Source: Atopobium sp.
Lineage (GTDB): Bacteria > Actinomycetota > Coriobacteriia > Coriobacteriales > Atopobiaceae
Direction: 5' to 3'
Assembly: GCA_015258765.1 (NCBI GenBank)
Contig: JABZHQ010000001.1
Span: 26,820-90,819, forward strand
DNA length: 64,000 nucleotides
Part shown: one piece after another, positions 7,338-49,063 of the stretch
How the letters are laid out: the number at the start of each line of letters is the position of its first letter
Numbering within the stretch: the first letter of the stretch is position 1
Notes under the pieces: generated by a model
Told to the model about the DNA's origin: nothing
The model's database searches: none
Seen by the model: only the letters and a program-made list of their open reading frames with translations
Program-made: the position numbers and the translations under genes

Positions 7338-8294
7338 GTGAACAACCTATTACGTCTTATCGGACGCCGTCTTATTGCGCTGCCGATTATGGCTCTAGGC
7401 GTCACCTTTCTCGTATTCTTCCTAATGTCTTTCTCGCATGTTGATCCTGCATACAATGCCTTGGGAGAGTCTGCTTCTGAAGAAGCTATCCAGCAGTATC
7501 ACATTGAGAATGGCCTTGATGATCCATGGCCTGTGAGATATGTACGCTATATCGGTGATGTTGCTCATGGAAACTTGGGTACCTACGGCACTTCTCACTA
7601 TTCAGTTGCTGCAAGAATTTCAAAGGCTCTGCCAGTAACTATGCAGTTGACCTTTATGGGTCTCTTCATTGGTGCAATAGTTTCGTTTACGTTGGGCGTT
7701 ATTGCGGCTCTCTATAGAGATCAATGGCCCGATCAAATCATCCGCGTATTCTCAATTGCCGGTCTTGCAACGCCATCATTCTGGTTGGCAGTTCTTTTGA
7801 TCCTGGTCTTTGCGTCTACGCTTAAGCTACTACCAGCCTCTGGAGCACTACCAGATCCTACGGTAAATCTTGGCGGCTACCTTGCCCGTATGATTATGCC
7901 GGCATTTGCACTTGCGGTTCCAATGTCTGGTCAGATGACTCGTATTGTTCGTACTGCAATGGTCGAGGAGCTGGATAAGGACTACGTTCGTACTGCTCGC
8001 GGTGCTGGTATTCCAGAGAGAATCGTCATTGCAAGAAACGTACTGCGCAACGCTCTTATTACCCCTGTAACCACGCTTGGTCTGAAGATTGGTTACCTCA
8101 TGGGTGGCGCCGTTGTTATTGAGGTTATTTTTAACCTTCCTGGCATGGGTACCGCAATTCTTGAGGGCATCCAGGGTAACGAGGCAATGCTTGTTCAGGG
8201 CGTTGTTGTTGTCGTTGCACTGTCCTTCATCATCATCAACATTGTTGTTGATATGTTGTACATCTTGATTAACCCACGCATTAGGACGGTGTAG
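7338..8294 (+). CDS. ABC transporter permease (OppB/DppB-like)
   Basis: 318 aa, 6 TM segments, conserved permease EAA-like loop region 'ARGAGIPER...'. Confidence 0.85.
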   Translation: MNNLLRLIGRRLIALPIMALGVTFLVFFLMSFSHVDPAYNALGESASEEAIQQYHIENGLDDPWPVRYVRYIGDVAHGNLGTYGTSHYSVAARISKALPVTMQLTFMGLFIGAIVSFTLGVIAALYRDQWPDQIIRVFSIAGLATPSFWLAVLLILVFASTLKLLPASGALPDPTVNLGGYLARMIMPAFALAVPMSGQMTRIVRTAMVEELDKDYVRTARGAGIPERIVIARNVLRNALITPVTTLGLKIGYLMGGAVVIEVIFNLPGMGTAILEGIQGNEAMLVQGVVVVVALSFIIINIVVDMLYILINPRIRTV

Positions 8295-8298
8295 TGCG

Positions 8299-13367: not shown

Positions 13368-14291
13368 ATGTCCAGTAACGTACCATTTAGCGGTGTTGTT
13401 CCACCAGTTGTAACCCCAGATACCCCAGATCATCAGCTTGATGTTGTGTCGTTTGAGCGCTCCATTAACCGTCTCATTGAGGCTGGCGTAGACGGCCTGT
13501 TCTTCCTTGGCTCTTCTGGCGAGGTTGTCTTTGCAACTGATGAGCGTCGTGATCAGATTGTTCGCGAGGCTGTCCGCATTGTTGACCACCGCGTTCCGGT
13601 CCTTGTGGGCATCATTGATACCGAGACCGAGCGCGTCCTGGAGCATGGTCGCCGTGCCCTCGCACTGGGTGCAGATGCTCTTGTAGCAACCGCTCCTTTC
13701 TACGCACTTGGTGGCCCAGCTGATATTGAGGAGCATTTCCGCATCCTTCACCAGGAGCTGGACGCACCTCTGTTTGCATACGATATTCCTGTCTGCGTTC
13801 CCACTAAGCTTCCTTGGAAGATGCTTGCTCGCCTGGGTGCAGAGGGCGTTCTTGCAGGCGTTAAAGACTCTTCTGGCGATGACGTTTCCTTCAGGTATCT
13901 TGTTCAGGAGAACGAGAAGAACGGTCACCCTCTGACTCTGCTGACTGGTCACGAGATTGTTGTTGACGGCGCTCTTCTTTCTGGTGCAGACGGTTCTGTT
14001 CCTGGTCTTGCTAATGTTGAGCCAGAGGGATACGTCCGCATGTGGAAGGCAGCTCAGGAAGGTAACTGGGCAGAGGTCAAGCGTGAGCAGGACCGACTTA
14101 ACGAGATCTCCCACATCTTTGATGTCACTTCAGGCGTTCAGGGCTATGGTGCTGGCGTTGGCGCATTCAAGTGCGCACTTAACCTCATGGGCATCTTTGA
14201 TTCTGACCAGATGCCTCGTCCTGTTAAGCCACTTGATGGCCAGAACCGTGAGGCAATCAAGCAGGTTCTTATTGCAAACGGCCTTCTCTAA
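13368..14291 (+). CDS. nanA: DapA-family aldolase; N-acetylneuraminate lyase candidate (NanA)
   Basis: 307 aa; 'FFLGSSGEVVFATDERR' DHDPS/NAL-family motif; assignment to NanA rests on adjacency to ROK kinase and ManNAc-6P epimerase. Confidence 0.65.
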   Translation: MSSNVPFSGVVPPVVTPDTPDHQLDVVSFERSINRLIEAGVDGLFFLGSSGEVVFATDERRDQIVREAVRIVDHRVPVLVGIIDTETERVLEHGRRALALGADALVATAPFYALGGPADIEEHFRILHQELDAPLFAYDIPVCVPTKLPWKMLARLGAEGVLAGVKDSSGDDVSFRYLVQENEKNGHPLTLLTGHEIVVDGALLSGADGSVPGLANVEPEGYVRMWKAAQEGNWAEVKREQDRLNEISHIFDVTSGVQGYGAGVGAFKCALNLMGIFDSDQMPRPVKPLDGQNREAIKQVLIANGLL

Positions 14292-14306
14292 ACAAGAGGG
14301 GACACC

Positions 14307-15296
14307 ATGGACTCTAAGTTTGTTTCTCCAACACATGTTTGCGCCGTTGATATTGGCGGCACAAAAATCGCCTGTGGCATAGTCACTCTTAACGGCACCG
14401 ACGCTCCAAACGTTCAGTCCGTAAAGAAGGTTCCTACCAACGCAAAAGAGGGTGGCAAGCAAGTTCTTGCTACCGTTCTGCAGGCAATTAGGGAGGCTCT
14501 TGCTCGCGCGCAAGAGCTGGGCCTTACCATCTCTGGCGTGGGCATTTCTTCTGCTGGCGTTGTTGATCCTCGTACCGGAGACATCACCTACGCAAACGAG
14601 CTTATGCCCGGCTGGGGCGGAACCGCTCTTGGCTCTGCAGTTACCAGTGAGTTTGGCCTTCCGTGCAGCGTTCTTAATGACGTTCATGCTCACGCTCTGG
14701 GCGAGGCTCGTCACGGTGCTGGCCACGGCAAAGATAGCGTTTTAACCGTAGCGGTTGGCACGGGTATTGGTGGCGCTTTTGTGAACCACGGCATTTTGAT
14801 GCTGGGCGCTCACGATGAGGCTGGCCACATTGGTCACGTTGCAACTCCAGCCGCTGCAGGCGTTGATTGCCCTTGTGGTGGAACTTCTCACCTTGAGCCT
14901 GTTTCTGCAGGTCCTGGCATTATTCGTGAGTATGTCCGTCTTGGCGGCTCCGATACGCTTGAAGATGGATCCGCTCTTGATGGCGCAGAGATTGACCGTA
15001 GGGCTCTTGCTGGCGAGAAAATCGCTCAAGCTGCAGAGGAGCGCTCAGGCCGTGCACTTGGTGAGGTTTTGGGCAGCATGTGCAATATGCTTGACCCCTC
15101 TGTCATCATTCTGTCTGGCTCCGTTGCAGAGTGTGGCAAGTACTGGCATGAGGCACTTGAAGCTGCATTTAAGTTGCAGGCCATGCCTCCTGTTCAGGCA
15201 ACGCCTATTGTGAAGGGCACGCTTGGCGGAGAAGCCCCTCTTATTGGAGCTGCAGAAAACCTTGTTCTACCTGGCTATTTAGAGACGCGTCTTTAG
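14307..15296 (+). CDS. nanK: ROK-family sugar kinase; N-acetylmannosamine kinase candidate (NanK)
   Basis: 329 aa; N-terminal 'CAVDIGGTKIACGIV' ATP-binding motif, ROK Zn motif 'CPCGGTSHLE'; no N-terminal HTH so kinase rather than repressor. Confidence 0.7.
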   Translation: MDSKFVSPTHVCAVDIGGTKIACGIVTLNGTDAPNVQSVKKVPTNAKEGGKQVLATVLQAIREALARAQELGLTISGVGISSAGVVDPRTGDITYANELMPGWGGTALGSAVTSEFGLPCSVLNDVHAHALGEARHGAGHGKDSVLTVAVGTGIGGAFVNHGILMLGAHDEAGHIGHVATPAAAGVDCPCGGTSHLEPVSAGPGIIREYVRLGGSDTLEDGSALDGAEIDRRALAGEKIAQAAEERSGRALGEVLGSMCNMLDPSVIILSGSVAECGKYWHEALEAAFKLQAMPPVQATPIVKGTLGGEAPLIGAAENLVLPGYLETRL

Positions 15297-15403
15297 GCAA
15301 GAGGCGCCAAGTCACAAAAAAGCTTGCTGACTTGGCTTGCTGATCTAGCACGCAGTAAAGACACACACCTTTAACGTACGTACATTCTTGTGAGGAGAAT
15401 ACC

Positions 15404-16093
15404 GTGGCATATTCAGAGCTTGTTGAGTCACTTAAAGGAAAACTCATTGTCAGCGTCCAGGCATATCCTGGTGAGCCTATGAGGCATCCAGAGACCATGG
15501 CTCAGATTGCTCGCGCTTGTGAGCTTGGCGGTGCTGCCGCTATTAGGTGCCAGGGTTTGTCTGACATCTCTGCCATTAAGGGTAGGGTTGAAATTCCTGT
15601 TATTGGCCTTTGGAAAGAGGGTCATGAAGGCGTCTACATTACTCCTACGCTTCGCCATGCGCGTGCTTGTATTCACGCTGGCGCAGATGTTGTTGCCCTG
15701 GATGCAACAGACCGTTCAAGGCCAGATGGTAGAACCTTTGAAGAGACCGTTGCAGCTCTGCGCGCAGAGTCTGACGTACTGATTATGGCTGACTGCATGA
15801 CTATGGATGATATCCGTCGTGCTGTTGCTGCTGGTTGTGACCTTGTTTCAACTACGCTTTCTCACAATAAGGCTGCTATTGATACAACGCTTGATGATGG
15901 TCCTGACATTGCCCTTCTCAAGCAGGCAACTACTGAGTTCCCAGGTATTGCTATCATTTGCGAAGGCCACGTGCACACGCCACAAGACGCAAAAGATGCT
16001 CTTGATGCAGGAGCTTGGGCAGTTGTTTCAGGTACTGCCATTACGCACCCGACTTCAATTACCTCTTGGTTTGCAGCAGCACTTGAGGATTAA
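15404..16093 (+). CDS. nanE: N-acetylmannosamine-6-phosphate 2-epimerase (NanE)
   Basis: 229 aa; 'KLIVSVQAYPGEPM...ETMAQIARACELGGAAAIRCQG' characteristic of NanE family. Confidence 0.8.
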   Translation: MAYSELVESLKGKLIVSVQAYPGEPMRHPETMAQIARACELGGAAAIRCQGLSDISAIKGRVEIPVIGLWKEGHEGVYITPTLRHARACIHAGADVVALDATDRSRPDGRTFEETVAALRAESDVLIMADCMTMDDIRRAVAAGCDLVSTTLSHNKAAIDTTLDDGPDIALLKQATTEFPGIAIICEGHVHTPQDAKDALDAGAWAVVSGTAITHPTSITSWFAAALED

Positions 16094-26310: not shown

Positions 26311-28085
26311 ATGGGTGATCATATGGCTGACAGTTTTTCCCGTCGTTCGTTCTTTGCTCTGACTGGAATCACCGCCGCAGGTCTTGGCCTTGCTGGTTGT
26401 GCTCCATCAAATCCTCAGAGCAGCTCTACCACCACAGGTACTGAGCCACAGGACGGCTCTCCTGCAAACACTCCTCTGGATCAGCTTCCACTTCCAGAGA
26501 AGGGCAAGACGTACAACAATCCTAAGTCTCGTGATGAGGTTAAGGATGGCGGTACTCTGACTCAGCCAATCAACGAGATTGGTCCACAGTGGAATTATTA
26601 CCAACTTGCTGGTAATACCTCTTACATGAACATCCTTCACGGTCTTATCAACCCTCGTGACCTGTTCCTTAACAATGCTGATGGCGATAAGTTTGAGCCA
26701 AACAAGGATTACATCAAGGACTTCAAGGTAGAGGAGAAGGACGGCAAACAGGTTGCTACCCTGACCTTCACTGATCAGGCCACCTTCAACGATGGTACCG
26801 CTATTGATTGGACCGCAATTCAGACCGCATTCATCACTATGTGTGGTCAGAATAAAAAGTTTGCGGTTTCTTCAACTGATGGTTATGACAAGTATGAGTC
26901 TGTTGAGCAGGGTGATACTGCTAAGACTGCTGTTATTACCATGAAGGAGGCAGTCTATCCAATCGAGAGCATCTTGAGCTATGCTCTGCACCCAAAGCTT
27001 CAGGATCCAGACTTCTTCAACAATGGTTACAACAATGAGCCACACAACGAGCTTGGTTCTGGTCCTTATATTGTTGATTCTTTCGATGACTCTGCTGTAA
27101 CCTTTAAGCCAAATCCAAAGTGGTGGGGTGACGCTCCTAAGCTTGATACCCTTGTCTACAAGCAGATGGATACCCAGGCTTCCATTAACGCATTCAAGAA
27201 CGAAGAGACTGATACTACTGGTACTTCCGTCGCAGGTTCTGCTGAGCTTCTTTCTAACTTCTCCGGTCTTGGTGATAAGGCTCAGATTCGCCGTGGTCTT
27301 GGTATGTCTATTGCTGTTATCGAGCTTAACTCTACTCGCGGTGCTCTTCGGATGTTGCAGTTCGTAAGGCATTCTGCCAGGTTGTTGATCCTGCAACTAT
27401 CGTTTCCATTGTCTTCCAGGGTGTTAACTGGAAAGAGGACGCACCAGGCTCTATGCTTTGGCCTTATTGGGCAGCTGGTTATGACAACAACCTCCCAGAC
27501 GATATCAAGAACCTCAAGTCTGCTGACGAGCGCAAGGCTGCTGCAAAGAAGACCCTTGAGGACGCAGGCTACAAGCTCAATGGCGATTACTACGAGAAGG
27601 ACGGTCAGCAGGTAACCTTTAGTTACACTCTGTTCGGCGACGGTACTACTGTTAAGAACCGTGCTGCTGCAATCCAGAAGATGTGCAAGGATGCTGGTAT
27701 TAACCTTACCCTTGATTCTCACCCATCTTCTGAGTTCTCTGATGTTCTTACCTCTGGCTCTTGGGATGTCTGCCTCTTTGGTTGGGTTGGCTCTTCAACT
27801 TCTTACAACAACGGTGGTCAGCTCTATGGTTCTGAATCTGGATCCAACTTTGGTCAGCAGGGCTCCGCAGAGACCGATGAGATGTTTGCAAAGGTTGTCT
27901 CTACCAAGGACTTTGATGAGCGCATGAAGCTCATGAATGAGGCTGAGAAGAAGATGATGCAGACTTACGCATATCTTCCTGTCTACACTGGTCCAGACTG
28001 CTACGTTGTTAAGAAGGGTCTTGCTAACTTTGGTCCTTCACTCTTCCAGAGCACACCAGCAACCATTGTTGGTTGGCAGAAGTAA
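26311..28085 (+). pseudogene. Family-5 ABC substrate-binding lipoprotein gene interrupted by a +/-1 frameshift near 27340-27350
   Basis: ORF 26311..27615 ends in ~90 aa of low-complexity out-of-frame sequence after '...VIELNSTRGAL'; the +1 frame continues 'SDVAVRKAFCQVVDPATIVSIVFQGVNWKEDAPG' into ORF 27453..28085 which carries the SBP C-terminus; TAT/lipobox N-terminus 'SRRSFFALTGITAAGLGLAGC'. Confidence 0.7.
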
Positions 28086-28193
28086 GCAAGGGACAAGGCG
28101 ATCTTCTCGCAAAGTTCTTTTGAGAAAAGTTTTTAATTTTTCTCAGTAAAGTTGCTTGAAGATGTGTTAGTATATCCCTCGCTGCAAAGCAAG

Positions 28194-28282
28194 TCGGAGT
28201 GGCGGAATTGGCAGACGCGCTAGCTTGAGGTGCTAGTGGCCTACTAACGGCTGTGCGGGTTCAAGTCCCGCCTCCGACACCA
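28194..28282 (+). tRNA. tRNA-Leu (anticodon GAG), long variable arm
   Basis: acceptor GTCGGAG/CTCCGAC, D-loop, anticodon stem CTAGC/GCTAG with loop TTGAGGT, T-loop GGTTCAAGTCC, 3' ACCA. Confidence 0.85.
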
Positions 28283-28291
28283 CGAAATTTC

Positions 28292-28321
28292 GGCGGATCT
28301 CTTCGGAGGTCCGCCTTTTTC
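28292..28321 (+). terminator. Rho-independent terminator after tRNA-Leu
   Basis: GGCGGATCTC-TTCG-GAGGTCCGCC hairpin followed by TTTTT. Confidence 0.7.
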
Positions 28322-28364
28322 GTATACTTAGGCAATATGATTTGTTTTTCCTTGTTGGTAAGGA

Positions 28365-30743
28365 GTGACTGTGGCAGATAACAAGCTGAGTGTAAGGCGT
28401 GTTGAGGGAGTTGTCGACGGAACCGTTGCCGCAACTCTGTCTCAGTTGCTGCGCCTGACCAGCGATGCAGTCATTGTTTTTAATATGGAGGGCATGGTTC
28501 TTCTCGCCAATGAGGAGGCCGAAAGCCTATTTGCTAAGGAAGACGGCACCATTGCCGGCCTGGATGTTCGCTTTTTGTTCACGCCGGCAAACCAAGAAAA
28601 CTTGCAGAAACCGTTCTTTGTAGAGTCGTTGCCGTTTGCGATTGATGGCTCCACTTCCATGGTGGCTGCTCCTGCTCATGACGGAACGTCGCAGGTTTTG
28701 AGTGTGCGTGCAGATTATGTGGGTGCGCCTACACAAGCTATTGTTTTGACTGCCTCTAAGCTTCGTGACATGGCTAGCCCTATGCACGATGATGAACGAA
28801 TGGTGTTGGACCTTCGCCGAGCCAATAAGAGGCTCTCAGGAGCGCTTCAGATTGTTTTGGACACGCTTGACTCGGAAGATATGGGTCAGCTTATCGAGCG
28901 CGTGTTAGAAGAGCTCTCAGAGACTGTCGAGGCTGATGGTGCGCTTATCTATCTTGCTGAGCAAGACGGGTACCACCTTCATGGTGCAACGGAGTCTTTG
29001 AGAAGTGCGTCATTGGATAGAATTCCTCGCTACTTTGCATTTAACAGCTCTCTGGAGCGTTTGACGTTTTATTCCGAGCACGCACTTCGCTTGCATACCA
29101 TGCCTTTGAACTCTAGCGCGCTCAAGCAGGGAAGAGTTAAAAAGCGCAACCTTGTTAACGAAGAAACTCGTGAGGTCATAACTGTTGACTCAAGTCATTT
29201 ACCTCCGTTTACCAGCTTTCTTGTGGTTCCAGTGTGGTTTGGTGGCCACATTGTTGCTCTGATTGAGGTGGGCTGGGAGCGTAAGCGCGCGCTTTTGGTT
29301 GAAGACGCAAGACTTCTGGACTCCATTGCAAATTACCTCTCGGTGCAGCTTGTAGGCGCGTTGTCGGCCATGAGAACGCAGCGTAGAGACACGCTTCGCG
29401 AGGCATTAGCTCGCGTGCGTCAGGGGTTGCTTCATAGCGCTGCAGAGGGCGAGAAGATCTCTGGCGAACGTTTGCAGCAGGTAATGAGGTCGGTGGGCAC
29501 CGATCTTTATGCACAGGTTTTCTCGGTAGATTGCTGTGAGGTAACGGGTAACGTTACGCTCCAAGCGCTTGGCACTGAGCAAGCTGCGGCGGCGGTTGAC
29601 GGCGCGCAGGGCGCAGCGGAGGCAGGCGGCGTGCAAGCTGCAGCTGGGGTCGGCGGCGCACAAGCTGCGGCGGAGGTTGACGGCGCGCAGGATGGCGGCA
29701 ACCAGATTGCGCTTCCATCGACGGTTGAGGGACTCAAGACAGGAGAGGGCGAGGCGTCAGTTAAAGAGGTTGCGCTTGAATCTGAACTGAGTCGCGCGCT
29801 TGCTGCACAGGGTCTGCCTTGTAAGGGAGCTGTGCTTTTCTTGGGCAAGTTTGCTGGCGAGCAGCATACCTGGCTTTTCTTGCGAGAAGAAAACGCTGAG
29901 CCCTTAAGCGACATTGAGCTTGATTTCTTGGACCGCGTGATGCTTCTGGTTCACTCGTTGGCCGTTGGTGCCGAAGAGAGCCAGCAAAATAAGCATATCT
30001 CCCAGGCGTTGCAGTCGGGTATGAAGAATGACCTCCAGCAAGTTGAAGGAATCTCTGCCGAAGGTATCTATTCATCTGCAACCGCCGACGCGTTTGTTGG
30101 TGGCGATTTCTATAGCATGATTAAGCTGCCAGGCCGTCGCGCGTGCATCATTATGGGTGACGTTTCTGGCAAGGGTATTGAGGCGGCATCTATCTCGTCC
30201 GCAGTTAAAACGGCACTTTCTGCCTATGCGTGGGAGGGAAGAACTCCTGCTCGTATGGTGGCAACGCTGAACGAATTCTTGCTGGGCTTCTCAAGGGTTG
30301 AGACGTTTGCAACGCTCTTTGTTGGTATTGTTGACCTTACAACTTCATCGCTGACCTACTGCTCCGCTGGTCATCCACCTGCGATTTTGGTGTCTGCTCA
30401 ATCGGGCGACGCTGAGCTTTTGGACGTACAGTCGGGCGTTGTGGGCGCGTTTCACGACATGGAGTACAAAAACGGTACGATTCGCTTACATGAGGGCGAT
30501 ATCCTGCTGCTTTACACCGATGGAACCACAGAGGCTCGCAGTCCCGAAGGCGCGTTCTTTGGCGAGACCGGCCTGCGAGACATGATTATGAACGAGGTTC
30601 CTCGTGGCTTTGACGGCCTGCTCAATAGGTTCTTGAGCACGCTTGACCGCTATACTGGCCGAAGGCTTGACGACGACGTTGCCATGGTGGCCCTGCGCTT
30701 CGATGAGCTTGGCAGCGCCGACTCTGGCGAGAAGAACAACTAG
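28365..30743 (+). CDS. PAS-GAF-GAF sensor fused to PP2C-type (SpoIIE/RsbU-like) serine phosphatase
   Basis: 792 aa; N-terminal PAS-like segment, two GAF-like segments, Ala/Gly-rich repeat linker, C-terminal PP2C motifs 'FVGGDFYSMIKL', 'IMGDVSGKGIEAA', 'LLLYTDGTTEA'; GTG start (28365 or 28371) after AAGGAG. Confidence 0.8.
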   Translation: MTVADNKLSVRRVEGVVDGTVAATLSQLLRLTSDAVIVFNMEGMVLLANEEAESLFAKEDGTIAGLDVRFLFTPANQENLQKPFFVESLPFAIDGSTSMVAAPAHDGTSQVLSVRADYVGAPTQAIVLTASKLRDMASPMHDDERMVLDLRRANKRLSGALQIVLDTLDSEDMGQLIERVLEELSETVEADGALIYLAEQDGYHLHGATESLRSASLDRIPRYFAFNSSLERLTFYSEHALRLHTMPLNSSALKQGRVKKRNLVNEETREVITVDSSHLPPFTSFLVVPVWFGGHIVALIEVGWERKRALLVEDARLLDSIANYLSVQLVGALSAMRTQRRDTLREALARVRQGLLHSAAEGEKISGERLQQVMRSVGTDLYAQVFSVDCCEVTGNVTLQALGTEQAAAAVDGAQGAAEAGGVQAAAGVGGAQAAAEVDGAQDGGNQIALPSTVEGLKTGEGEASVKEVALESELSRALAAQGLPCKGAVLFLGKFAGEQHTWLFLREENAEPLSDIELDFLDRVMLLVHSLAVGAEESQQNKHISQALQSGMKNDLQQVEGISAEGIYSSATADAFVGGDFYSMIKLPGRRACIIMGDVSGKGIEAASISSAVKTALSAYAWEGRTPARMVATLNEFLLGFSRVETFATLFVGIVDLTTSSLTYCSAGHPPAILVSAQSGDAELLDVQSGVVGAFHDMEYKNGTIRLHEGDILLLYTDGTTEARSPEGAFFGETGLRDMIMNEVPRGFDGLLNRFLSTLDRYTGRRLDDDVAMVALRFDELGSADSGEKNN

Positions 30744-30800
30744 ACGATTTCTCGCCAAGGAGACGATTTTCTCGTCAAAAAATGCAGATATCTGAAATTC

Positions 30801-31559
30801 TTGTTGCTGCGCGGGAACAAGAAACGTATGTATACGCAGCCAAACATAGCAGTTGTTTCAGTCAATACTGACCTTGACGTGAGGGGAGTCCCGCGCGTGA
30901 AGGCTCAGATTGAGCAGCTCATTGATAGCGGCTGTAGAAGAATTGTGCTGAATATGTCGGAGGTTTCGTACATCGATTCATGCGGCATGGGCTTTATTGT
31001 GTGCGCTGTTCGACGTATGAAGACGCTTGGTGGCCTTATGAGCTTGACCAACGTGCAACCAACGGCGTTTAAGGCCTTGGTGCGCATGGGTCTTATCGAC
31101 TTCATGCCAATAAGTACCTGCGCTGCAAAGTCGCGCGTGACTCCGCTTGCGCCGGGCACGCATCCATCGTTCCAGACAACGTTTAGAGTTGATCCCAATA
31201 AAATGTGCGACGCTCGCTCAAGGGCTATCGCGCTGCTGAAGACGCTGCCGTTTACCTCGGATCAAAAGTTTGACATTGAACTTGCAGTTGGCGAAGCTAT
31301 TGGCAACGCCGTTGATCACGCGTGCGAGAAGGGCGTTCTGACCACGGTTTCCGCGTATCCAGATAGGGTGGTCATTGACGTCTCGGATTGCGGCAGCGGC
31401 TTTAGCATTTCCGATGAGGAGGAACCTCCCGAGACTGGCCAGTTTGCCGAGCGTGGTCGCGGCGTCAAGTTGATGCGCCTGCTTATGGATGCCGTGTCTA
31501 TCCAGGAGAAACCTTCCGGCAACGGCACCGTCGTCCGCCTGGTCAAGATGATGCGCTAG
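30801..31559 (+). CDS. Fusion protein: anti-sigma-factor antagonist (STAS) domain + RsbW/SpoIIAB-like HATPase_c kinase domain
   Basis: 252 aa; STAS motif 'MSEVSYIDSCGMGFIV'; C-terminal 'ELAVGEAIGNAVDHA' (N-box) and 'DCGSGF', 'RGRGVKLM' (G-boxes) of GHKL kinases. Confidence 0.75.
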   Translation: MLLRGNKKRMYTQPNIAVVSVNTDLDVRGVPRVKAQIEQLIDSGCRRIVLNMSEVSYIDSCGMGFIVCAVRRMKTLGGLMSLTNVQPTAFKALVRMGLIDFMPISTCAAKSRVTPLAPGTHPSFQTTFRVDPNKMCDARSRAIALLKTLPFTSDQKFDIELAVGEAIGNAVDHACEKGVLTTVSAYPDRVVIDVSDCGSGFSISDEEEPPETGQFAERGRGVKLMRLLMDAVSIQEKPSGNGTVVRLVKMMR

Positions 31560-31689
31560 GGCGTGCGAGCGCGGGCGGGTCGCAAGGCGATTTCAACCCG
31601 GTATCTACTTCGTGTGGATACCGGGTTTCTTGTGCGGAAATGCTGGGAGTGGACGGGTTTCTCGCCAGGCGGGTGGCGCGAGCTGGGCG

Positions 31690-31970
31690 TACGCTTGAGC
31701 GCGCCTGATTTTTTCGTCAAGTCTGAACGATTTGCCTGAAAAGCACACCTAGTCTGAGCTATTTGCCGGTTTTTCTCGCCAAGTCTGAGTAAATTTACTC
31801 AGACATGGTGAGGTTTTCAGGCTCGCAAAATTTGGAGACAGCACCCTAGTTAGAACGTGCCTGATTTCTGCAAAGAATCTGTAACTTCTGCCTAAATAAG
31901 TAAAAGAATCGGTGGATTTGCCTGATTTTGTAAAAGAATCGGTGTCACAAATACAGATTCTTTGCACTTT
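31690..31970. repeat. Repeat-dense noncoding region (multiple short direct repeats and a 20-bp perfect palindrome)
   Basis: AGTCTGA(A/G)C(G/T)ATTTGCC x2, GTAAAAGAATCGGTG x2, TGCAAAGAATCTG/CAGATTCTTTGCA inverted pair, palindrome TCTGAGTAAATTTACTCAGA, GGTTT(T)TCTCGCCA copies. Confidence 0.6.
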
Positions 31971-32011
31971 TCAGGCGCGTCTGACTAAAACCCAAGCAAG
32001 CACGGTTATGC

Positions 32012-32045
32012 GCGACAAAAAGAAACCCCAGCCGAAGCTGGGGTT
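32012..32045 (-). terminator. Terminator of minus-strand tRNA-Gly/tRNA-Cys transcript
   Basis: AACCCCAGC-TTCG-GCTGGGGTT hairpin followed (minus strand) by TCTTTTTGTC. Confidence 0.65.
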
Positions 32046-32056
32046 GTCAATTCACT

Positions 32057-32130
32057 GGAGGCGAGACCCGGATTCGAACCGGGGATAAAGGCTTTGCAGG
32101 CCTCTGCCTTACCACTTGGCCATCTCGCCA
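32057..32130 (-). tRNA. tRNA-Cys (anticodon GCA)
   Basis: reverse complement reads GGCGAGATGGCCAAGTGGTAAGGCAGAGGCCTGCAAAGCCTTTATCCCCGGTTCGAATCCGGGTCTCGCCTCCA; anticodon loop CTGCAAA. Confidence 0.85.
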
Positions 32131-32167
32131 TATGAAAAAGGCCGAAACGAATCCGGCCGAAAAATCA

Positions 32168-32243
32168 TGGAGCGGGCTACGGGGTTCGAACCCGCGACCT
32201 CAACCTTGGCAAGGTTGCGCGCTACCAACTGCGCTAAGCCCGC
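32168..32243 (-). tRNA. tRNA-Gly (anticodon GCC)
   Basis: reverse complement reads GCGGGCTTAGCGCAGTTGGTAGCGCGCAACCTTGCCAAGGTTGAGGTCGCGGGTTCGAACCCCGTAGCCCGCTCCA; anticodon loop TTGCCAA. Confidence 0.85.
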
Positions 32244-32444
32244 GAACGCGAGGAATAATATACGCAAGTTCACGGCTGAGTGCAAGTGTAAATTTCAAAA
32301 TCGTCAAACTTTTTTAGAAAAGTCACGAATCCTCATGCGCTCAAGAGGTGGATTTTTCTTGCAAATCTTACAAATAAGAGCAGGTAGATTGCCAAGTGTG
32401 ACCGCTTGCCGTATCATAGAACAAGAACTTTTGAATGAGGTTGT

Positions 32445-33347
32445 ATGTTCTTTATTGTCGCGTCGCTCATAGCTCTTTTGACGCTTGCGTATCTTGTCGC
32501 AAGCGGTTTTGTTCGCGTGGTGCGCTATTTTTGGGGCTGGCTTTCGTCTGGCGAGAAGATCGATGGGCTCGCAGGTGACGCTCCTAGCGCTGCATCGGAC
32601 GCACCTGACGGCGCTACCGGTGCCGCATCAGCCGCACCGTTCTCCAAGCCAAAACCAACGCAAGCCGAGCTTTCGGCGTACTTGGACAAGATGCATCTTG
32701 GCTGGTACCAGGTGGTTATTCTCTTCATTGTGGGTTGCATGGCTGGCCTTCTTATCGAAGAGATCTGGATGCTCATTACCGCCGGCCTGACCGAGAGCAG
32801 GGTGGGACTTATTTGGGGACCGTTCTCTCCACTTTATGGAACCGGCGCGGTGTTTCTGACGGTAATTTGCTACCAGCTGCACAAGCATCACGCCAATAAC
32901 CTGGTCATTTTCTTGGTTTCAGTTGTTGTTGGCGGCACGCTTGAGCAGCTTACCGGCTGGGGAATGCAAGAGATTTTCCACTCGGAGTCATGGACGTATG
33001 CCCATCTTCCAGACGCAATCACACAGTGGGTGGCCTGGCGATTCTTAGGCTTTTGGGGCATTTTGGGCCTCATTTGGTGTCGTGTCATCATGCCTCGCGC
33101 GCTCTACAAGATTGGCGAGCCAACATCAAAAAGGCAAGCAATTTTTGTTACCCTGCTTACGGTGTATCTTGTTGCCGACATCACTATGACGGTGGCGTGT
33201 TTGGCGAGAAAAGCTCAGCGAGACGCTGGTATTCCTCCGACAAACGCGTTTGAGATGTGGGTAGATAATCACTACGATGACAGCTTTGTATCTGCTCGAT
33301 TCCAGAACATGACGTTTACGTCGCCAGATTCGCCTGACAAGTCATAG
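32445..33347 (+). CDS. Hypothetical polytopic membrane protein
   Basis: 300 aa, ~6 predicted TM helices, Ala/Ser-rich N-proximal linker; no recognisable catalytic motif. Confidence 0.6.
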   Translation: MFFIVASLIALLTLAYLVASGFVRVVRYFWGWLSSGEKIDGLAGDAPSAASDAPDGATGAASAAPFSKPKPTQAELSAYLDKMHLGWYQVVILFIVGCMAGLLIEEIWMLITAGLTESRVGLIWGPFSPLYGTGAVFLTVICYQLHKHHANNLVIFLVSVVVGGTLEQLTGWGMQEIFHSESWTYAHLPDAITQWVAWRFLGFWGILGLIWCRVIMPRALYKIGEPTSKRQAIFVTLLTVYLVADITMTVACLARKAQRDAGIPPTNAFEMWVDNHYDDSFVSARFQNMTFTSPDSPDKS

Positions 33348-38494: not shown

Positions 38495-39058
38495 ATGTCT
38501 CTTATTGGTAAGGAAATTGGTGATTTTAAGGTAAACGCATTCCACAACGGTGACATCACTGAGGTAAGCAAGGAGTCCACACTGGGCAAGTGGAGCCTGT
38601 TCTTCTTCTATCCAGCTGACTTCACCTTTGTCTGCCCAACCGAGCTTGAGGATCTTGCAAACAACTACGACAAGTTCCAGGCTGCTGGTGCAGAGGTTTA
38701 CTCTGTTTCCTGCGACACCGAGTTTGTCCACAAGGCATGGCATGAGGAGTCCGAGCGTATTTCTAAGGTAACCTACCCAATGCTCGCAGACCCAGCTCAC
38801 GTTCTTGCAAGGAACTTTGAGGTTCTTATCGAGGATGCTGGCCTTGCTGAGCGCGGTGCCTTCATTGTTGACCCAGAGGGTGTCATTCAGGTTGAGCTTG
38901 TTACCGCTGGTGGTATTGGTCGTAACGCTGAGGAGCTTCTCCGCCTTCTCCAGGCTGCACAGTTTGTTGCAGAGCACGGTGACCAGGTTTGCCCAGCTAA
39001 GTGGCAGCCAGGCGCTGAGACCCTGAAGCCAAGTCTTGACCTTGTTGGTCAGCTCTAA
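38495..39058 (+). CDS. ahpC: Peroxiredoxin AhpC (typical 2-Cys)
   Basis: 187 aa; 'FFFYPADFTFVCPTEL' peroxidatic Cys motif and C-terminal resolving Cys 'GDQVCPAKW'. Confidence 0.92.
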   Translation: MSLIGKEIGDFKVNAFHNGDITEVSKESTLGKWSLFFFYPADFTFVCPTELEDLANNYDKFQAAGAEVYSVSCDTEFVHKAWHEESERISKVTYPMLADPAHVLARNFEVLIEDAGLAERGAFIVDPEGVIQVELVTAGGIGRNAEELLRLLQAAQFVAEHGDQVCPAKWQPGAETLKPSLDLVGQL

Positions 39059-39074
39059 GATTTAGGAGCTTACA

Positions 39075-40718
39075 ATGACCGACGTCAAAGACCTCTACGA
39101 CGCGGTGATTATCGGCGGTGGGCCAGCTGGGCTCACCGCCGCCCTCTATCTGGCCCGCGCTCGCTACCGTGTTCTAGTTGTCGAGAAGGACCATTTTGGC
39201 GGACAGATCACTATTACTAATGAGGTCGTTAATTACCCGGGAGTTTTCTCTACTAGTGGCTCTGAACTCTCAGAAACCATGCGTAAGCAGGCTGAGGCCT
39301 TTGGTGCAGAGTTTTTGCTGGCAGAAGTTACTGACTTGGACATGTCCGGAGATGTTAAGGTAGTTCACACCACCAAAGGTGAGCGTCCCTGCCTCTCCGT
39401 TCTTCTCGCCACAGGAGCACATCCTCGCCATATTGGATTTGTGGGAGAAGAGGACTATCAGGGCCACGGAGTTGCTTACTGCGCCACCTGCGACGGCGAA
39501 TTCTTTACCGGCAAGGAAGTCTTTGTTATTGGTGGAGGCTTTGCAGCCGCAGAAGAAAGCGTATTTCTAACTAAGTACGCAAAGCACGTCACGGTTCTTG
39601 TGCGCGAGGAAGCATTTACCTGCGCCCCTGCGTCGTCCGAGGCTGCTCGCACTAATCCAAATATTACGGTTCTGTACAACACACAGGTTGAATCCGTTGC
39701 CGGAGATTCCGCACTTAGGTCTATTACGTACAAGAACCTCAAGACGGGCGAGAAGACCACGTTTGCTCCAGAAGATGGAGATTCTATTGGTGTCTTTGTC
39801 TTCGCGGGCTATGCGCCAGAGACTGACCTGGTAAAAGAGCTAGCTCAGACTGATGATTACGGTTATCTGATTACCAACGAGCATCAAGAAACAACCTGTG
39901 AGGGTCTCTTTGGTGCAGGCGACGTATGTCAGAAGCCACTACGTCAGGTTGCAACGGCTATTGGTCAGGCGGCAACTACTGCCACCGAGATGGAACGCTA
40001 CATCAAGCGTGCCCAGGAAAAGACCAGCCTTGTTCCGCAGATGAACGTCACGCGCATCTCGTCCAAGAAGGAGGCTCCTGAGGCTCCAGCGGCCAAGACC
40101 ACCTCTGACTCCGGAGAGCTTTTTACCGACGACATGAAGGCGCAGCTTAACGCTGTCTTTGAGCGCATGGCACGTCCGCTTGTGCTTCAGCTTGAGCTTG
40201 ATCAAAGACCTGTTTCTGAGGAGCTTGTAGCTTACATGGAAGAACTTTCTTCTATGACCGACAAGCTGAGCGTTCAAACAGTCTCAGACACGGGCGAGAA
40301 GAACCTTCCTGTTGTTCGTGTGTGCGCACAGGATGGTGCGCCAACAGGTCTTGCGTTCCACGGTGTTCCCGGCGGCCATGAGTTCACTTCGTTTGTTCTT
40401 GGACTCTACAACGCCGCAGGTCCTGGTCAACCTATTAGTGACGAGGATAAGGCATCTATTGCCGCTATCGAGTCAAAGACGCATCTCCAGGTCTTGGTAG
40501 GACTTTCTTGTACCATGTGCCCAGACGTTGTTGTAGCTGCTCAGCGCATTGCTGCGGATAATCCCCAGGTCACCTGCGATGTCTACGACATCAACCACTT
40601 CAAGGAGCTCAAAGACACCTACGATGTCATGAGCGTTCCATGCTTGGTTATCAACGACGGCCAGAAGGTTGACTTCGGCAAGAAGAATCTCTCTCAGATT
40701 CTGTCGCTGATTCCTTAA
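39075..40718 (+). CDS. ahpF: Alkyl hydroperoxide reductase subunit F-like flavoprotein with permuted domain order (TrxR-like domain N-terminal, AhpF N-terminal-type double-Trx domain C-terminal)
   Basis: 547 aa; 'VIIGGGPAGLTAALYLARA' FAD motif and 'CATCDG' redox centre in first 330 aa; C-terminal 'GHEFTSFVLGL', 'LSCTMCPDVVVAAQ', 'MSVPCLVING' match AhpF NTD motifs. Confidence 0.8.
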   Translation: MTDVKDLYDAVIIGGGPAGLTAALYLARARYRVLVVEKDHFGGQITITNEVVNYPGVFSTSGSELSETMRKQAEAFGAEFLLAEVTDLDMSGDVKVVHTTKGERPCLSVLLATGAHPRHIGFVGEEDYQGHGVAYCATCDGEFFTGKEVFVIGGGFAAAEESVFLTKYAKHVTVLVREEAFTCAPASSEAARTNPNITVLYNTQVESVAGDSALRSITYKNLKTGEKTTFAPEDGDSIGVFVFAGYAPETDLVKELAQTDDYGYLITNEHQETTCEGLFGAGDVCQKPLRQVATAIGQAATTATEMERYIKRAQEKTSLVPQMNVTRISSKKEAPEAPAAKTTSDSGELFTDDMKAQLNAVFERMARPLVLQLELDQRPVSEELVAYMEELSSMTDKLSVQTVSDTGEKNLPVVRVCAQDGAPTGLAFHGVPGGHEFTSFVLGLYNAAGPGQPISDEDKASIAAIESKTHLQVLVGLSCTMCPDVVVAAQRIAADNPQVTCDVYDINHFKELKDTYDVMSVPCLVINDGQKVDFGKKNLSQILSLIP

Positions 40719-46159: not shown

Positions 46160-47629
46160 TTACTTGCGGTTACGGCCACCAAGGGAGTAGCCAAGGTTCT
46201 CCCAGAAATCAATCTGGACATCTTCGCCCTCGTCCCAAACCTTGAGCAGGTCCTCTGGAACGTACTGACGACGAACATCAGCCTCGCCGCCGTAGAGGCG
46301 GAACCAGTCTGCGCTCATGATGAGGTAGCCGTCCTTACCGGAGTCCTTACCCCAGCTGTTCTCAATGCGCCACTGCTTAGCCTTACCGTCCTTATCAAGC
46401 TCAACGCCCTGGAAGGTCATTGCGTGGGTAAGGGAAGTCTCATAGTTCTCAATCATTGAGGCACGATCCATGTCAAAATCAACGCCAAAGAGGCCGTTGT
46501 AATCCATGGTGTCGGTTGAGAGAACGTAGTTGAAGTCCTCATTGTGGCGAGGGAACTCCTGCATAACGTCGCAGGCCATGCAGACAGGGTTGCCGTCCTT
46601 CAAAGAAGCAATGGTAGCTGCCTCAAGAACCTCTGGCTCAACGTTTAAGAAGCGAGTCTTAATGCCGCCTAAAACGGTATCGATGAAGGTTGGGTGATAC
46701 ACCTTGCCGTAAGGATACTTCTTGCTTGGAACAGAAATGAGCTGGACAAAGCCACGAGGATCAACGCCACAATAGCGCTCAGCAAACTCAAGAGGAGTGA
46801 TGCCAAAGTCGCGAAGAATCTGGGTACCTTCCTCGTCCTTCTCGCCGTCCTTCTTGTCCTTGTTGTCAGAAGCCTTGCTTGGCTCAACAGGAGAAAGCTT
46901 TGCCTTATCTACCTGTGCGTTTTTGCCAACCTTGCACTCAAAGTCAAAGGTCAGAGGTGGCTCGCCAAGGCAGACGGAAAGGATCTGGTGGAAGCCCTTG
47001 AGCTGCTCCTGCTTAAGCGCACGAAGCTCGTCTTGAGACTTACCAGCTGCGTATGCTGCGCGAAGCTCGCCAGCACTCTTTCTGAACAGGCGGTCAATGC
47101 GCTCATCCATCTGTGTAGAGTTCTTGGAGCATGCAGTCTCTGGCATGGCATCCTTAGGAACCAGGCCATACTTCTCAACCAAGCTCATAGCGAATGAGTA
47201 GTAGCCGCCATCGCCAATACCCTCGGTCAGAAGCGTGTTGACAACACGAGAATCGGTTGGCTGGTTAGCGGTCTGAATGATGTACTCAAGTGCAGAGTTT
47301 GCCTTCTCAAGCTTGTCGTAGAACATGCCGTATGCCTGGCTGAACTCAAAGGTATCAACGTCAAGCTTTTTGATTGCCTCCTGGCGAAGCACGTTGAAAG
47401 AAGAGAACATCCAGCAGCGACCGCTCTGACGCTGGTTGGTGACGTCGCCCGTCTTTGCAACAGCAACACCGTAGGTGTCAGCGTAGGTGCGCATGGTGGT
47501 GATGTCGCGAGCAGCTGCGGAAACACCCATAGAGGTTACGGAATTGCGAGCAACGCGATTAGCACGGTCTGCACTAAATGCAGCGGTTTCCTCGTTTGCC
47601 CACTGTGGATTTACGGTCTGATCAGCCAT
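46160..47629 (-). CDS. pepC: Aminopeptidase C (bleomycin hydrolase-like, peptidase C1B)
   Basis: 489 aa; 'NQRQSGRCWMFSSFN' active-site Cys motif, C-terminal His/Asn region. Confidence 0.88.
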   Translation of the reverse strand: MADQTVNPQWANEETAAFSADRANRVARNSVTSMGVSAAARDITTMRTYADTYGVAVAKTGDVTNQRQSGRCWMFSSFNVLRQEAIKKLDVDTFEFSQAYGMFYDKLEKANSALEYIIQTANQPTDSRVVNTLLTEGIGDGGYYSFAMSLVEKYGLVPKDAMPETACSKNSTQMDERIDRLFRKSAGELRAAYAAGKSQDELRALKQEQLKGFHQILSVCLGEPPLTFDFECKVGKNAQVDKAKLSPVEPSKASDNKDKKDGEKDEEGTQILRDFGITPLEFAERYCGVDPRGFVQLISVPSKKYPYGKVYHPTFIDTVLGGIKTRFLNVEPEVLEAATIASLKDGNPVCMACDVMQEFPRHNEDFNYVLSTDTMDYNGLFGVDFDMDRASMIENYETSLTHAMTFQGVELDKDGKAKQWRIENSWGKDSGKDGYLIMSADWFRLYGGEADVRRQYVPEDLLKVWDEGEDVQIDFWENLGYSLGGRNRK

Positions 47630-47664
47630 TGCGGCTCCTTTTGTTTGTAGCGTTTAGAAAAAAC

Positions 47665-47692
47665 CTGGCGAGAAGACCGATCTTCTCGCCAG
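47665..47692 (-). terminator. Terminator between tandem pepC genes
   Basis: perfect palindrome CTGGCGAGAAGA-CCGA-TCTTCTCGCCAG, T-run on minus strand. Confidence 0.7.
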
Positions 47693-47704
47693 ATGGTTTG
47701 TGCC

Positions 47705-49063
47705 TTAGCGAAGCGTTGCAAGAGAGCCCATTGGGTCCCATGGCTCGAGGACGGTTGCTTCCTCGGTCTCAAAGGTCTTGAGCTGCTCAGGAGTGAGGTA
47801 CTTCTTGTCAACAACAATCTGGTAGACGTACTCGTCAAACCAAGGGTCAGAAATGGTGTCAAAGCCATCGCGACCGTGGTCTTTACCCCAGCTGTTCTCA
47901 ACCTTCCAGAGGGTAGTGTTGCCTTCTGCGTCAAAGTTAACGCCCTCAAGAACCATTGCGTGAGTCATCAGAGACTCACCGTAGTCAAGGCGCTCAGCAC
48001 GGTCAAGTGCGCCCTCAACAGGGAAGCCAAAGAGGCCGTCAACGTCAAGCGCACGGGTGTCCATGATGCCCTCTTCGCGAAGGTAGGACTGAGCAACATC
48101 GCAACCAAACCAGACAGGCAGATTGTCCTTGAGCTGAGCCACTGCGAGGCGCTTGAGCTCAGGAATCTCAAGGTTGAGGTAACGAACGCCGCCACCCTCA
48201 ACAACGTTACCCAAGCGCGAAACGGTATAGGTGTGGTTGAAAGGCTTATCTGCGGTTGGTGCAGAAATGATTGAGATGTAATCATCAAGATTCATGTCAA
48301 CAGTCTCAGCGAAGAACTCCTGAGGAGTAAAAGTGCCAGAAAGGGCGAGGTTGTCGTCCTTATCGCGCAGGCGTGCCTCAAAAGATACAGGAGGCTGACC
48401 CAAGCAAGTTACCAGCAGCGTGTAGACGTCCTCCATCATCTCTTTCTTCATCTCGCGCAGAGACTCAAGGGATTCACCAGCTGTTGCGGTCTCACGAAGA
48501 CGCTTTGCAGCACTACGAAGATAGCGGGTAAGGTACGCGTCCATCTCGTGGGTGTTGCAAGAGTTAGCAGTCTCTGGCATAGCGCTCTTTGGAACTACAC
48601 CATACTTCTTTACAAGGCTCTTAAACATATCCCACTGGCCACCGTCGCCAATTGGATCGGTGAGCAGGAAGGATACAAGACGGCCATTCAGAGGCTCATC
48701 AAGGGTGTCCAAAATGTTCTCAAGGAACCAGTTGGACTTCTCCATCTTGTCCCAGAACAGTGGGTATGCCTGAGAAAGCTCAAAGGTAGATAGGTTGTAT
48801 TTCTTGATGATGCGATATCTAAACGTATTGAGTGATGCAAACATCCAACAACGACCAGAACGCTTCTGATTAGTACGGTCACCCTGCTTTACCTCAACAT
48901 CAAAGGTAAGAGGATTGAGGGCAACACCTTCTGGTACACGAGCTGCTTTTCTAACACCAGCGCTGGTAGCAGCATTTTTAGCTACTGTGTGAGCGCGGTC
49001 GGACTCAAAGTTCTTCTGAGCCGCTGCAATGTCGTCAAAGGAAATGCTTTTCATCTGATCCAT
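47705..49063 (-). CDS. pepC: Aminopeptidase C paralog (peptidase C1B)
   Basis: 452 aa; 'NQKRSGRCWMFASLN' active-site motif; ~40-50% identical to downstream copy by eye. Confidence 0.88.
   Translation of the reverse strand: MDQMKSISFDDIAAAQKNFESDRAHTVAKNAATSAGVRKAARVPEGVALNPLTFDVEVKQGDRTNQKRSGRCWMFASLNTFRYRIIKKYNLSTFELSQAYPLFWDKMEKSNWFLENILDTLDEPLNGRLVSFLLTDPIGDGGQWDMFKSLVKKYGVVPKSAMPETANSCNTHEMDAYLTRYLRSAAKRLRETATAGESLESLREMKKEMMEDVYTLLVTCLGQPPVSFEARLRDKDDNLALSGTFTPQEFFAETVDMNLDDYISIISAPTADKPFNHTYTVSRLGNVVEGGGVRYLNLEIPELKRLAVAQLKDNLPVWFGCDVAQSYLREEGIMDTRALDVDGLFGFPVEGALDRAERLDYGESLMTHAMVLEGVNFDAEGNTTLWKVENSWGKDHGRDGFDTISDPWFDEYVYQIVVDKKYLTPEQLKTFETEEATVLEPWDPMGSLATLR

Follow-up and report, generated by a model that had tools for sequence, protein, structure and literature searches.

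The 64,000-nt stretch of an Atopobium sp. genome analysed here (positions 26,820 to 90,819 of contig JABZHQ010000001.1, assembly GCA_015258765.1; called the window below, whose numbering is used unless another locus is named) contains two adjacent genes, A and B. Gene A encodes a sensor protein with a PP2C phosphatase domain, and gene B encodes one chain in which an antagonist (STAS) domain is followed by an RsbW-like serine kinase domain. It seems clear that the pair is a real, conserved and intact-looking module, all of whose parts come from known families; the mechanism is one that we infer. The reading that we think fairly likely is that A and B form a partner-switching module laid out as rsbU-rsbV-rsbW, with rsbV and rsbW fused, sigB missing and the partner encoded elsewhere, the activities being those predicted from the sequence. 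Among the marks of a partner switch, we find in gene B a STAS domain with the serine of a DSxG motif and a GHKL kinase with N, G1 and G2 boxes, and in gene A a PP2C domain with intact metal-binding Asp motifs. Antagonist and kinase are not separate proteins, being a single 243-aa open reading frame (ORF) in more than 100 clusters, and no cognate sigma gene stands in the same operon or adjacent to it.

The antagonist-kinase fusion

Gene B occupies 30828-31559 on the + strand, as do all the module features and boundaries given below (ORF list, Pfam and homologue starts). The ORF list begins it at TTG 30801, for a product of 252 aa; every homologue starts at ATG 30828, and P0001 is 243 aa long. 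Judged by these starts, the gene begins at ATG 30828 and its product is 243 aa, not 252. The STAS domain lies at 30828-31115 (Pfam STAS, E 9.7e-17; TIGR00377, the NCBIfam anti-sigma-antagonist superfamily model, 63.9 bits against a cut-off of 53.45). Within its YIDSCGMG motif, Asp50-Ser51 (30975-30980, with the Ser51 codon at 30978-30980) aligns with the phospho-serine position of SpoIIAA (FMDSSGLG), and Ser51 is the predicted phospho-acceptor. D50 is found in all 64 gene B homologues compared and S51 in 63, the lone exception being locally garbled.

An inter-domain linker of residues 97-114 (31116-31169, from the alignment) leads to the RsbW/SpoIIAB-type GHKL serine kinase domain at 31188-31547 (Pfam HATPase_c_2, E 4.9e-20). 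The linker is partly conserved, with L107 and P109 at 90% or more and P113 invariant in 23 sequences and at least 90% conserved in 64. Alignment to RsbW and SpoIIAB identifies the N box as GEAIGNAVDH (E156-H164, 31293-31319), G1 as DCGSG (D187-G191, 31386-31400) and G2 as ERGRG (R209-G212, 31452-31463), and places R130 (31215-31217) opposite R20 of SpoIIAB. Residues R130, E156, N160, H164, D187, G189, G191 and G210-R211-G212 are invariant in 64/64 homologues, down to 39% identity. Among 17 far more distant fusions (21-37% identity), all 17 retain R130 and the N box, 16 the Asp-Ser acceptor and 14 the G1 motif DxGxG.

The AlphaFold2 model of gene B has a predicted local distance difference test score (pLDDT) of 86.5 and a predicted template-modeling score (pTM) of 0.63, and shows two domains with a coil of about 17 residues between them; the linker as a whole is coil at pLDDT ~74-76. 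The kinase fold matches SpoIIAB, RsbW and UsfX with target-normalised template-modeling (TM) scores of 0.69-0.91, and the N-terminal half matches SpoIIAA and RsbV. An earlier note on this DNA, made from the sequence alone, had proposed a STAS domain with a phosphorylatable serine (IDSCGMG) joined to an RsbW/SpoIIAB-like GHKL domain, had called for a domain prediction of STAS plus HATPase_c, and had allowed that the C-terminal domain might prove to be without ATP-binding G boxes. Pfam matches both families, Ser51 falls at the SpoIIAA phosphosite, and all the boxes are present and invariant, so that the proposal stands.

The sensor phosphatase

The ORF list starts gene A at GTG 28365 (792 aa). 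An in-frame GTG at 28371 sits 5 nt past AAGGAG (28360-28365), and a database protein of 790 aa, P0102, named 'SpoIIE family protein phosphatase [Atopobium sp.]', is 100% identical to the reading from GTG 28371. From these two sequence features GTG 28371 is the likelier start, and we place gene A at 28371-30743 (ORF list, Pfam, match to P0102). The sensor phosphatase of 792 aa described in the earlier note is thus there as an ORF, with its length corrected to 790 aa.

The SpoIIE/RsbU-type PP2C catalytic domain that the earlier note had assigned to this protein is borne out by Pfam (SpoIIE, E about 3.5e-46; residues 588-777, 30132-30701) and by intact motifs: GGDFY (577), GDVSGKG (596), YTDG (715) and DDDV (767). 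D579, D717, D768 and D769 are invariant, and D597 is kept in at least 90%, among 61 gene A homologues of about 50% identity, all 61 of which match SpoIIE. In the AlphaFold2 model the domain spans 561-777. Its best solved matches in a Foldseek search of the PDB are 3pu9, 3ke6 (RsbU and RsbW domains of Rv1364c; 28-29% identity) and RssB.

Ahead of the phosphatase the earlier note had placed a PAS domain and two GAF domains. At the level of fold this array holds, and by sequence it does so in part, the PAS signal being weak and the second GAF being without one. The first GAF domain (residues 169-327, 28875-29351) is matched by Pfam GAF_2 (E 8.7e-10) and GAF (E 3.1e-8), and GAF is found in 61/61 homologues. 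(In the numbering of the 792-aa ORF the Pfam spans are 590-779 for SpoIIE, 171-329 for GAF and 25-81 for PAS.) The PAS-like domain (residues 15-130, 28413-28760) is supported by a weak Pfam PAS signal, hits in homologues and the AlphaFold2 fold: PAS families reach E 0.014-0.06 at best in gene A itself (residues 25-81), match 23/61 homologues with a best E of 3e-6, and the modelled unit runs as a helix, two strands, helices and three strands. The second GAF-like, or PHY-like, domain (residues 365-505, 29463-29885) is recognized by AlphaFold2 fold and Foldseek. Its pLDDT is ~78-90 outside an insert, and its order of helices and strands parallels that of the first GAF. For this domain Pfam gives no sequence signal, and hhalign of residues 336-575 against the profile of the first GAF gives a probability of 0.5%. 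The whole model, which was built on the homologue alignment and has a mean pLDDT of 77.7, sets a helix between each domain and the next: a long one between the PAS-like unit (15-130) and GAF (171-302), one of 49 residues between GAF and the unit at 365-505, and another long one ahead of the PP2C domain.

Is the sensor a phytochrome? Foldseek aligns residues 15-550 (28413-30020) with the PAS-GAF-PHY region of bacteriophytochromes over ~555-610 columns at E ~1e-12, yet the TM score is 0.22-0.43 and the root-mean-square deviation 15-18 A. The PAS and first GAF domains of gene A contain no Cys, DIP occurs in 3/61 homologues and PRxSF in 0/61. We reject phytochrome identity on the absence of the signature motifs and chromophore Cys and on the low TM score; since the signatures are absent, the likeness to phytochromes is one of shape alone.

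Gene A varies in length at two places. An in-frame 27-bp tandem repeat of 4.1 copies (29579-29689, found by TRF), with an AAAExGGAQ-like 9-aa unit, encodes a disordered loop (residues 403-442, pLDDT <50 in the AlphaFold2 model) within the second GAF-like domain. Among 120 gene A variants of 93-100% identity the repeat region is 27-67 aa long, and its copy number differs between strains. At the C-terminus, comparison of variants shows an 8-aa unit, GSADSGEK, present here in one copy (30711-30734); the tails of the variants carry one to five copies of G[SG]xDSGxL. The repeated tail is seen only in Lancefieldella parvula-like loci, among the loci compared, and its DSG core is loosely reminiscent of the DSxG phosphosite of STAS domains.

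Distribution and pairing of the two genes

The source bacterium is an oral member of the Atopobiaceae very near Lancefieldella (formerly Atopobium) parvula, and gene B is 93-99% identical in loci L001-L021. When one genome per species was scanned, relatives of gene B turned up in at least 566 stretches, and the locus counts given here refer to the best 80 of these, which are labelled nearly all as Atopobiaceae or other Coriobacteriia, with a few bins otherwise named. As one ORF, the gene B relatives make up 101 protein clusters. In about 76 of the 80 loci the gene immediately upstream, in the same orientation, encodes a full-length match to the PP2C protein, and often only a few bases separate the two genes. 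The exceptions are two loci at contig edges, L043 and L060, where no PP2C gene is in view and Pfam matches none of the ORFs upstream, and L058, where a cation-efflux gene is inserted. In L019, a near-complete metagenome-assembled genome with a gene B of 95% identity, the PP2C gene (7593-9909 of that locus) is in three ORFs, which may be phosphatase decay or assembly errors.

The fusion reaches well beyond this family. A profile search of a library of 1.84 billion representative proteins gave 82 matches with E <1e-30, other phyla included, and many matches are full-length and in a single stretch, at 245-285 aa and 1e-25 to 1e-45. All 10 distant matches checked with Pfam carry STAS and HATPase_c_2. 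Seven have the plain STAS-then-kinase order; of the remaining three, one is a gene call that also has a cation-efflux domain, one has three STAS domains and one has the reverse order. Two clusters of distant matches are named Armatimonadota. Of the eight distant contexts that were read, five have a multi-sensor SpoIIE protein encoded immediately upstream, one has it 4 kb upstream, and two have none in view. The five partners are a PAS/GAF protein of 1239 aa with a 3-bp gap (two loci of a single Armatimonadota gene), a triple-GAF protein of 916 aa and HAMP-GAF-GAF proteins of 909 and 1087 aa. Because a sensor PP2C with a STAS-kinase fusion and no linked sigma gene is shared across contexts, we regard the pair as a recurring module, not a local oddity. 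In public annotation these proteins go by 'anti-sigma factor antagonist' and 'SpoIIE family protein phosphatase'.

How the switch might work

The order of domains in gene B, STAS and then kinase, is that of the genes V and W, and the PP2C gene, the counterpart of U, lies upstream; the canonical B. subtilis operon runs U, then V, then W. In the scheme set out here we infer the kinase activity, the phosphatase activity, the docking, the cis or trans mode, the signal and the output. The RsbW-like domain of gene B would use ATP to phosphorylate Ser51 on its own STAS domain, either in cis or across a dimer. Intramolecular phosphorylation is possible, and phosphorylation in trans within a gene B dimer is equally open because RsbW-type kinases are dimers. 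The PAS/GAF/GAF-like/PP2C protein would remove the phosphate from Ser51 once its sensor domains bind a signal. Unphosphorylated STAS would dock on the kinase domain and phosphorylation would free it, and the docked state would determine whether the kinase domain (or STAS) is free to meet a partner whose gene lies elsewhere in the genome. That partner would be a protein sequestered by the RsbW-like domain. We argue for phosphotransfer because the acceptor serine is conserved, all the ATP-binding elements are conserved, and an intact PP2C is nearly always paired with the fusion.

Relation to known systems

The RsbU/RsbV/RsbW-SigB and SpoIIE/SpoIIAA/SpoIIAB-SigF systems of Bacillus have the same signature residues for the three activities as the present module, the same folds, and the same order of phosphatase, antagonist and kinase. 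Here, in contrast, antagonist and kinase are fused, and a hairpin and two opposite-strand tRNA genes lie downstream in place of a sigma gene. The sensors differ as well: ours is a PAS-GAF-GAF array, whereas RsbU has an RsbT-binding N domain and SpoIIE a membrane domain.

The earlier note had seen novelty in the covalent linkage of antagonist and kinase, for which there are precedents in SipA and Rv1364c. According to its published description, SipA (AMIS_54230) of Actinoplanes missouriensis is a protein of 243 aa with STAS at 6-103 and an RsbW-like domain at 158-239; the two domains bind each other, and the adjacent sigma-SsdA is bound, through its STAS domain, by the RsbW-like one (PMC10733313, 2023). 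Gene B shares with SipA its architecture and its length, 243 aa, and, broadly, its phylum. The differences lie in the surroundings. The sipA gene adjoins ssdA, which encodes a SigB/F/G-type sigma factor with its own C-terminal STAS domain, whereas no sigma gene of this kind is among the neighbours adjoining gene B or near its 80 relatives; and a sensor PP2C is a near-obligate neighbour of gene B, whereas the passages of PMC10733313 drawn on here describe no PP2C partner. The same paper states that no like domain structure had been reported before, and reports homologues only in Micromonosporaceae and one Nonomuraea, a far narrower distribution than that of the gene B family.

In Rv1364c of M. 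tuberculosis a single chain carries sensor, PP2C, GHKL kinase and STAS. The protein is described in PMC7693655, citing Greenstein 2009, as phosphorylating and dephosphorylating its own STAS domain; the same paper has it binding SigF in vitro. It shares with our module the covalent kinase-antagonist link, a PAS-type sensor and a PP2C domain, but it is one polypeptide in which the kinase precedes STAS, whereas here there are two polypeptides and STAS precedes the kinase. The kinase domain of Rv1364c is not among the PDB sequence matches of gene B. RsbW3 of M. smegmatis was considered as a further fused precedent and ruled out, being a 194-aa single-domain protein.

Nor is an output other than an adjacent sigma factor the departure that the earlier note took it to be, as partner switches with a non-sigma or unlinked output are well documented, for example SiaABCD (PMC9239204, PMC8256260). 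SiaABCD, HsbR/HsbA, SypE/SypA and the HenR/STAS-glycosyltransferase system of Anabaena all work without an adjacent sigma output (PMC9239204, PMC8256260, PMC6482189, PMC13555669). These systems have in common with our module a phospho-switch made of PP2C, GHKL serine kinase and STAS; their fusions join the kinase with a phosphatase or receiver, or STAS with an enzyme, and none joins STAS with the kinase.

The partner, and alternative readings

What does the module control? By analogy, the most likely partner, proposed with low confidence, would be a sigma-70 family factor, possibly with its own STAS domain as in the SipA/SsdA pair; this is the weakest part of the scheme. We favor it because the kinase keeps the Arg that SpoIIAB uses for sigma-F and SpoIIAA, and because both of the fused relatives that have been studied touch a sigma factor. 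RpoD, SigF, SigB and RpoE queries, together with a small hidden Markov model, were run with phmmer and hmmsearch against 1.29 Mb made up of the window and the loci. The positive control worked, in that the queries recovered each other. There is no sigma-70 family ORF in the 64-kb window, and Pfam finds no Sigma70 domain in the 42 of its 56 ORFs that were scanned. Within 10 kb of the fusion in the 80 loci there is no sigma-70 gene apart from an ECF-like ORF that L023, L024 and L027 have about 7 kb downstream; we dropped it as a candidate partner because it is not conserved. The earlier note was therefore right that no sigma gene is in the vicinity, and its concern that one might lie in the operon just outside the window is answered by the same search, which finds none in the operon here or, that ORF apart, within 10 kb in related loci. 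A literature search on sigma factors and partner switching in Atopobium, Olsenella and Coriobacteriia turned up nothing specific.

Some of these points weigh against a fused partner switch with a sigma-type partner encoded elsewhere. With no sigma-70 gene within 10 kb in about 80 genomes, nor near the fusion in the eight distant contexts, a sigma target is without support from linkage. The published SipA model (PMC10733313) is one of constitutive binding between the two domains, in which phosphorylation is not invoked. Moreover, the pTM of 0.63 leaves the relative placement of the two domains of gene B unfixed.

A serious rival keeps the phospho-switch and changes its output. On this view unphosphorylated STAS, or the kinase domain once released, would control an enzyme, a transporter or a second-messenger protein, for which SiaABCD, SypE/SypA and the STAS-glycosyltransferase of Anabaena are models. 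The absence of a linked sigma-70 gene from all of about 88 contexts speaks for it, as do the sigma-independent partner switches already on record (PMC9239204, PMC8256260, PMC13555669). Some neighbors point the same way. A cation-diffusion-facilitator (CDF) gene is by the fusion in L058, L087, L088 and L086, in L058 between the PP2C and fusion genes; the 573-aa gene call P0237 consists of CDF, STAS and kinase; and in L091 the gene for an HD-GYP/GAF/GGDEF protein adjoins the module. The CDF neighbors may hint at a metal-related role. However, the L058, L087 and L088 copies are closely related to one another (E 1e-90 to 1e-104) and may be synteny inherited in one clade, and none of the other 80 loci has the gene, so that the association stays a lead only. 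The retained equivalent of SpoIIAB R20, used for sigma-F and SpoIIAA binding, and the contacts of both characterised fused relatives, SipA and Rv1364c, with a sigma factor also tell against a non-sigma output, and we hold it to be possible, with a clearly lower likelihood than the partner switch laid out above.

Might the fusion instead be a SipA-like scaffold without phosphotransfer, its domains bound constitutively, the kinase fold serving as a binding module and the PP2C acting on some other target? The published SipA model, which posits a constitutive STAS-RsbW interaction and includes no kinase assay (PMC10733313), is of this kind, and kinase-negative RsbW homologues exist, M. smegmatis RsbW1 and RsbW3 among them (PMC7693655). 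On the other hand, Ser51 (63/64) and the ATP boxes are near-universal in the 64 homologues and are kept at 21-37% identity, which is hard to explain without catalysis, and the gene for an active-looking PP2C is near-obligately paired with the fusion. We regard a scaffold as quite improbable. As for an artefact, in which a frameshift, a lost stop codon or an assembly error would have joined rsbV to rsbW, the rarity of the fused architecture in textbook systems is the one point in its favor, and it is refuted, to the extent that we give it practically no weight, by the recurrence of the same single ORF in 101 protein clusters and at least 566 genome stretches, by the 82 representatives at E <1e-30 in the 1.84-billion-protein library, other phyla included, and by a linker with conserved residues.

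The module is of interest for how widely the two-gene unit occurs and for what its output may be, not for a new principle. A single STAS-RsbW chain was called unprecedented when SipA was described (2023), and was thought to be confined to sporangium-forming actinomycetes. Here a conserved gene with this architecture runs through a whole family whose members (Lancefieldella, Olsenella, Thermophilibacter and others) live in the gut and mouth of humans and animals, and it is found also in Armatimonadota and further lineages, coupled in nearly all contexts examined to a sensor PP2C and not to a sigma gene. With its two proteins the module offers a compact system in which to ask what tethering the antagonist does to a partner switch, and what sigma-unlinked switches control; the finding also flags the module as the main candidate for serine-phosphorylation signalling in the small-genome Atopobiaceae. 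A bolder proposal, which we offer tentatively and think doubtful, is that the bicistron of multi-sensor PP2C and STAS-RsbW is a distinct sigma-free device in several phyla, a self-contained serine phospho-switch acting on a non-sigma target, and that in the Atopobiaceae its phytochrome-shaped PAS-GAF-GAF sensor responds to a small molecule. Were this so, it would be a third common format of bacterial phospho-signalling beside two-component systems and Hanks-type kinases, overlooked in gut and oral Coriobacteriia.

Surroundings of the module

Genes A and B are on the same strand with a gap of 84 bp, and a terminator scan finds no terminator-like site on that strand in the gap, so that the two are probably one operon. 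Upstream, the module is bounded by a tRNA-Leu(GAG) gene (28193-28282; ARAGORN, Rfam), 3' of which the terminator scan places a terminator-like hairpin and T-run (28292-28315). Past the stop codon of gene B there is a further hairpin at 31595-31627 (inverted repeat I7, 14 nt, 93% complementary; terminator scan), at which the two-gene operon probably ends, and after it come tRNA-Cys and tRNA-Gly genes on the opposite strand. A scan of 27900-32500 with Rfam gave three tRNAs and no other match. The flanks consist of Opp transporter genes and the tRNA-Leu gene upstream, and of the tRNA genes and CmpB-like, IscS-like and MnmA genes downstream. Relatives keep this chromosomal position, with the Opp genes on one side and the CmpB-like, IscS-like and MnmA genes on the other.

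Clustered direct and inverted repeats of 24-29 nt (GCCTGATTTTT...AAGTCTGA type; D1, D2, I1-I4) fill part of the intergenic region past gene B (31700-31980), and strings related to tttctcgccaag occur also between genes A and B (30745-30775); neither has an Rfam match. Upstream, the Opp-type substrate-binding gene (SBP_bac_5; 26311-28085) is split into overlapping ORFs at 26311-27615 and 27453-28085. One ORF spans both parts in 19 close relatives, and the same split is present in L019; it is a frameshift, due either to a pseudogene or to a sequencing error. Elsewhere in the window are a sialic-acid-type cluster (DHDPS-family, ROK, NanE) at 13368-16093, an AhpC/AhpF-like peroxiredoxin pair at 38495-40718, about 7 kb downstream of the module, two tandem Peptidase_C1_2 (PepC-like) genes at 46160-49063 and a gene for a choline-binding-repeat protein at 60676-62400.

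We note finally some neighbors of the module in other genomes. The CDF genes (Cation_efflux/ZT_dimer) by or in the module are at 8916-9968 in L058, 5280-6248 in L087, 573-1517 in L088 and 8890-10041 in L086, and CsoR-like, HMA and DsbD_TM genes are near the module in L087-L090. In L088-L090, loci of one lineage, a sigma-54-dependent two-component system (PAS histidine kinase and NtrC-type regulator) lies immediately upstream of the module, and in L088 the module is also near a sigma-54 gene, the one such gene among the eight distant contexts.

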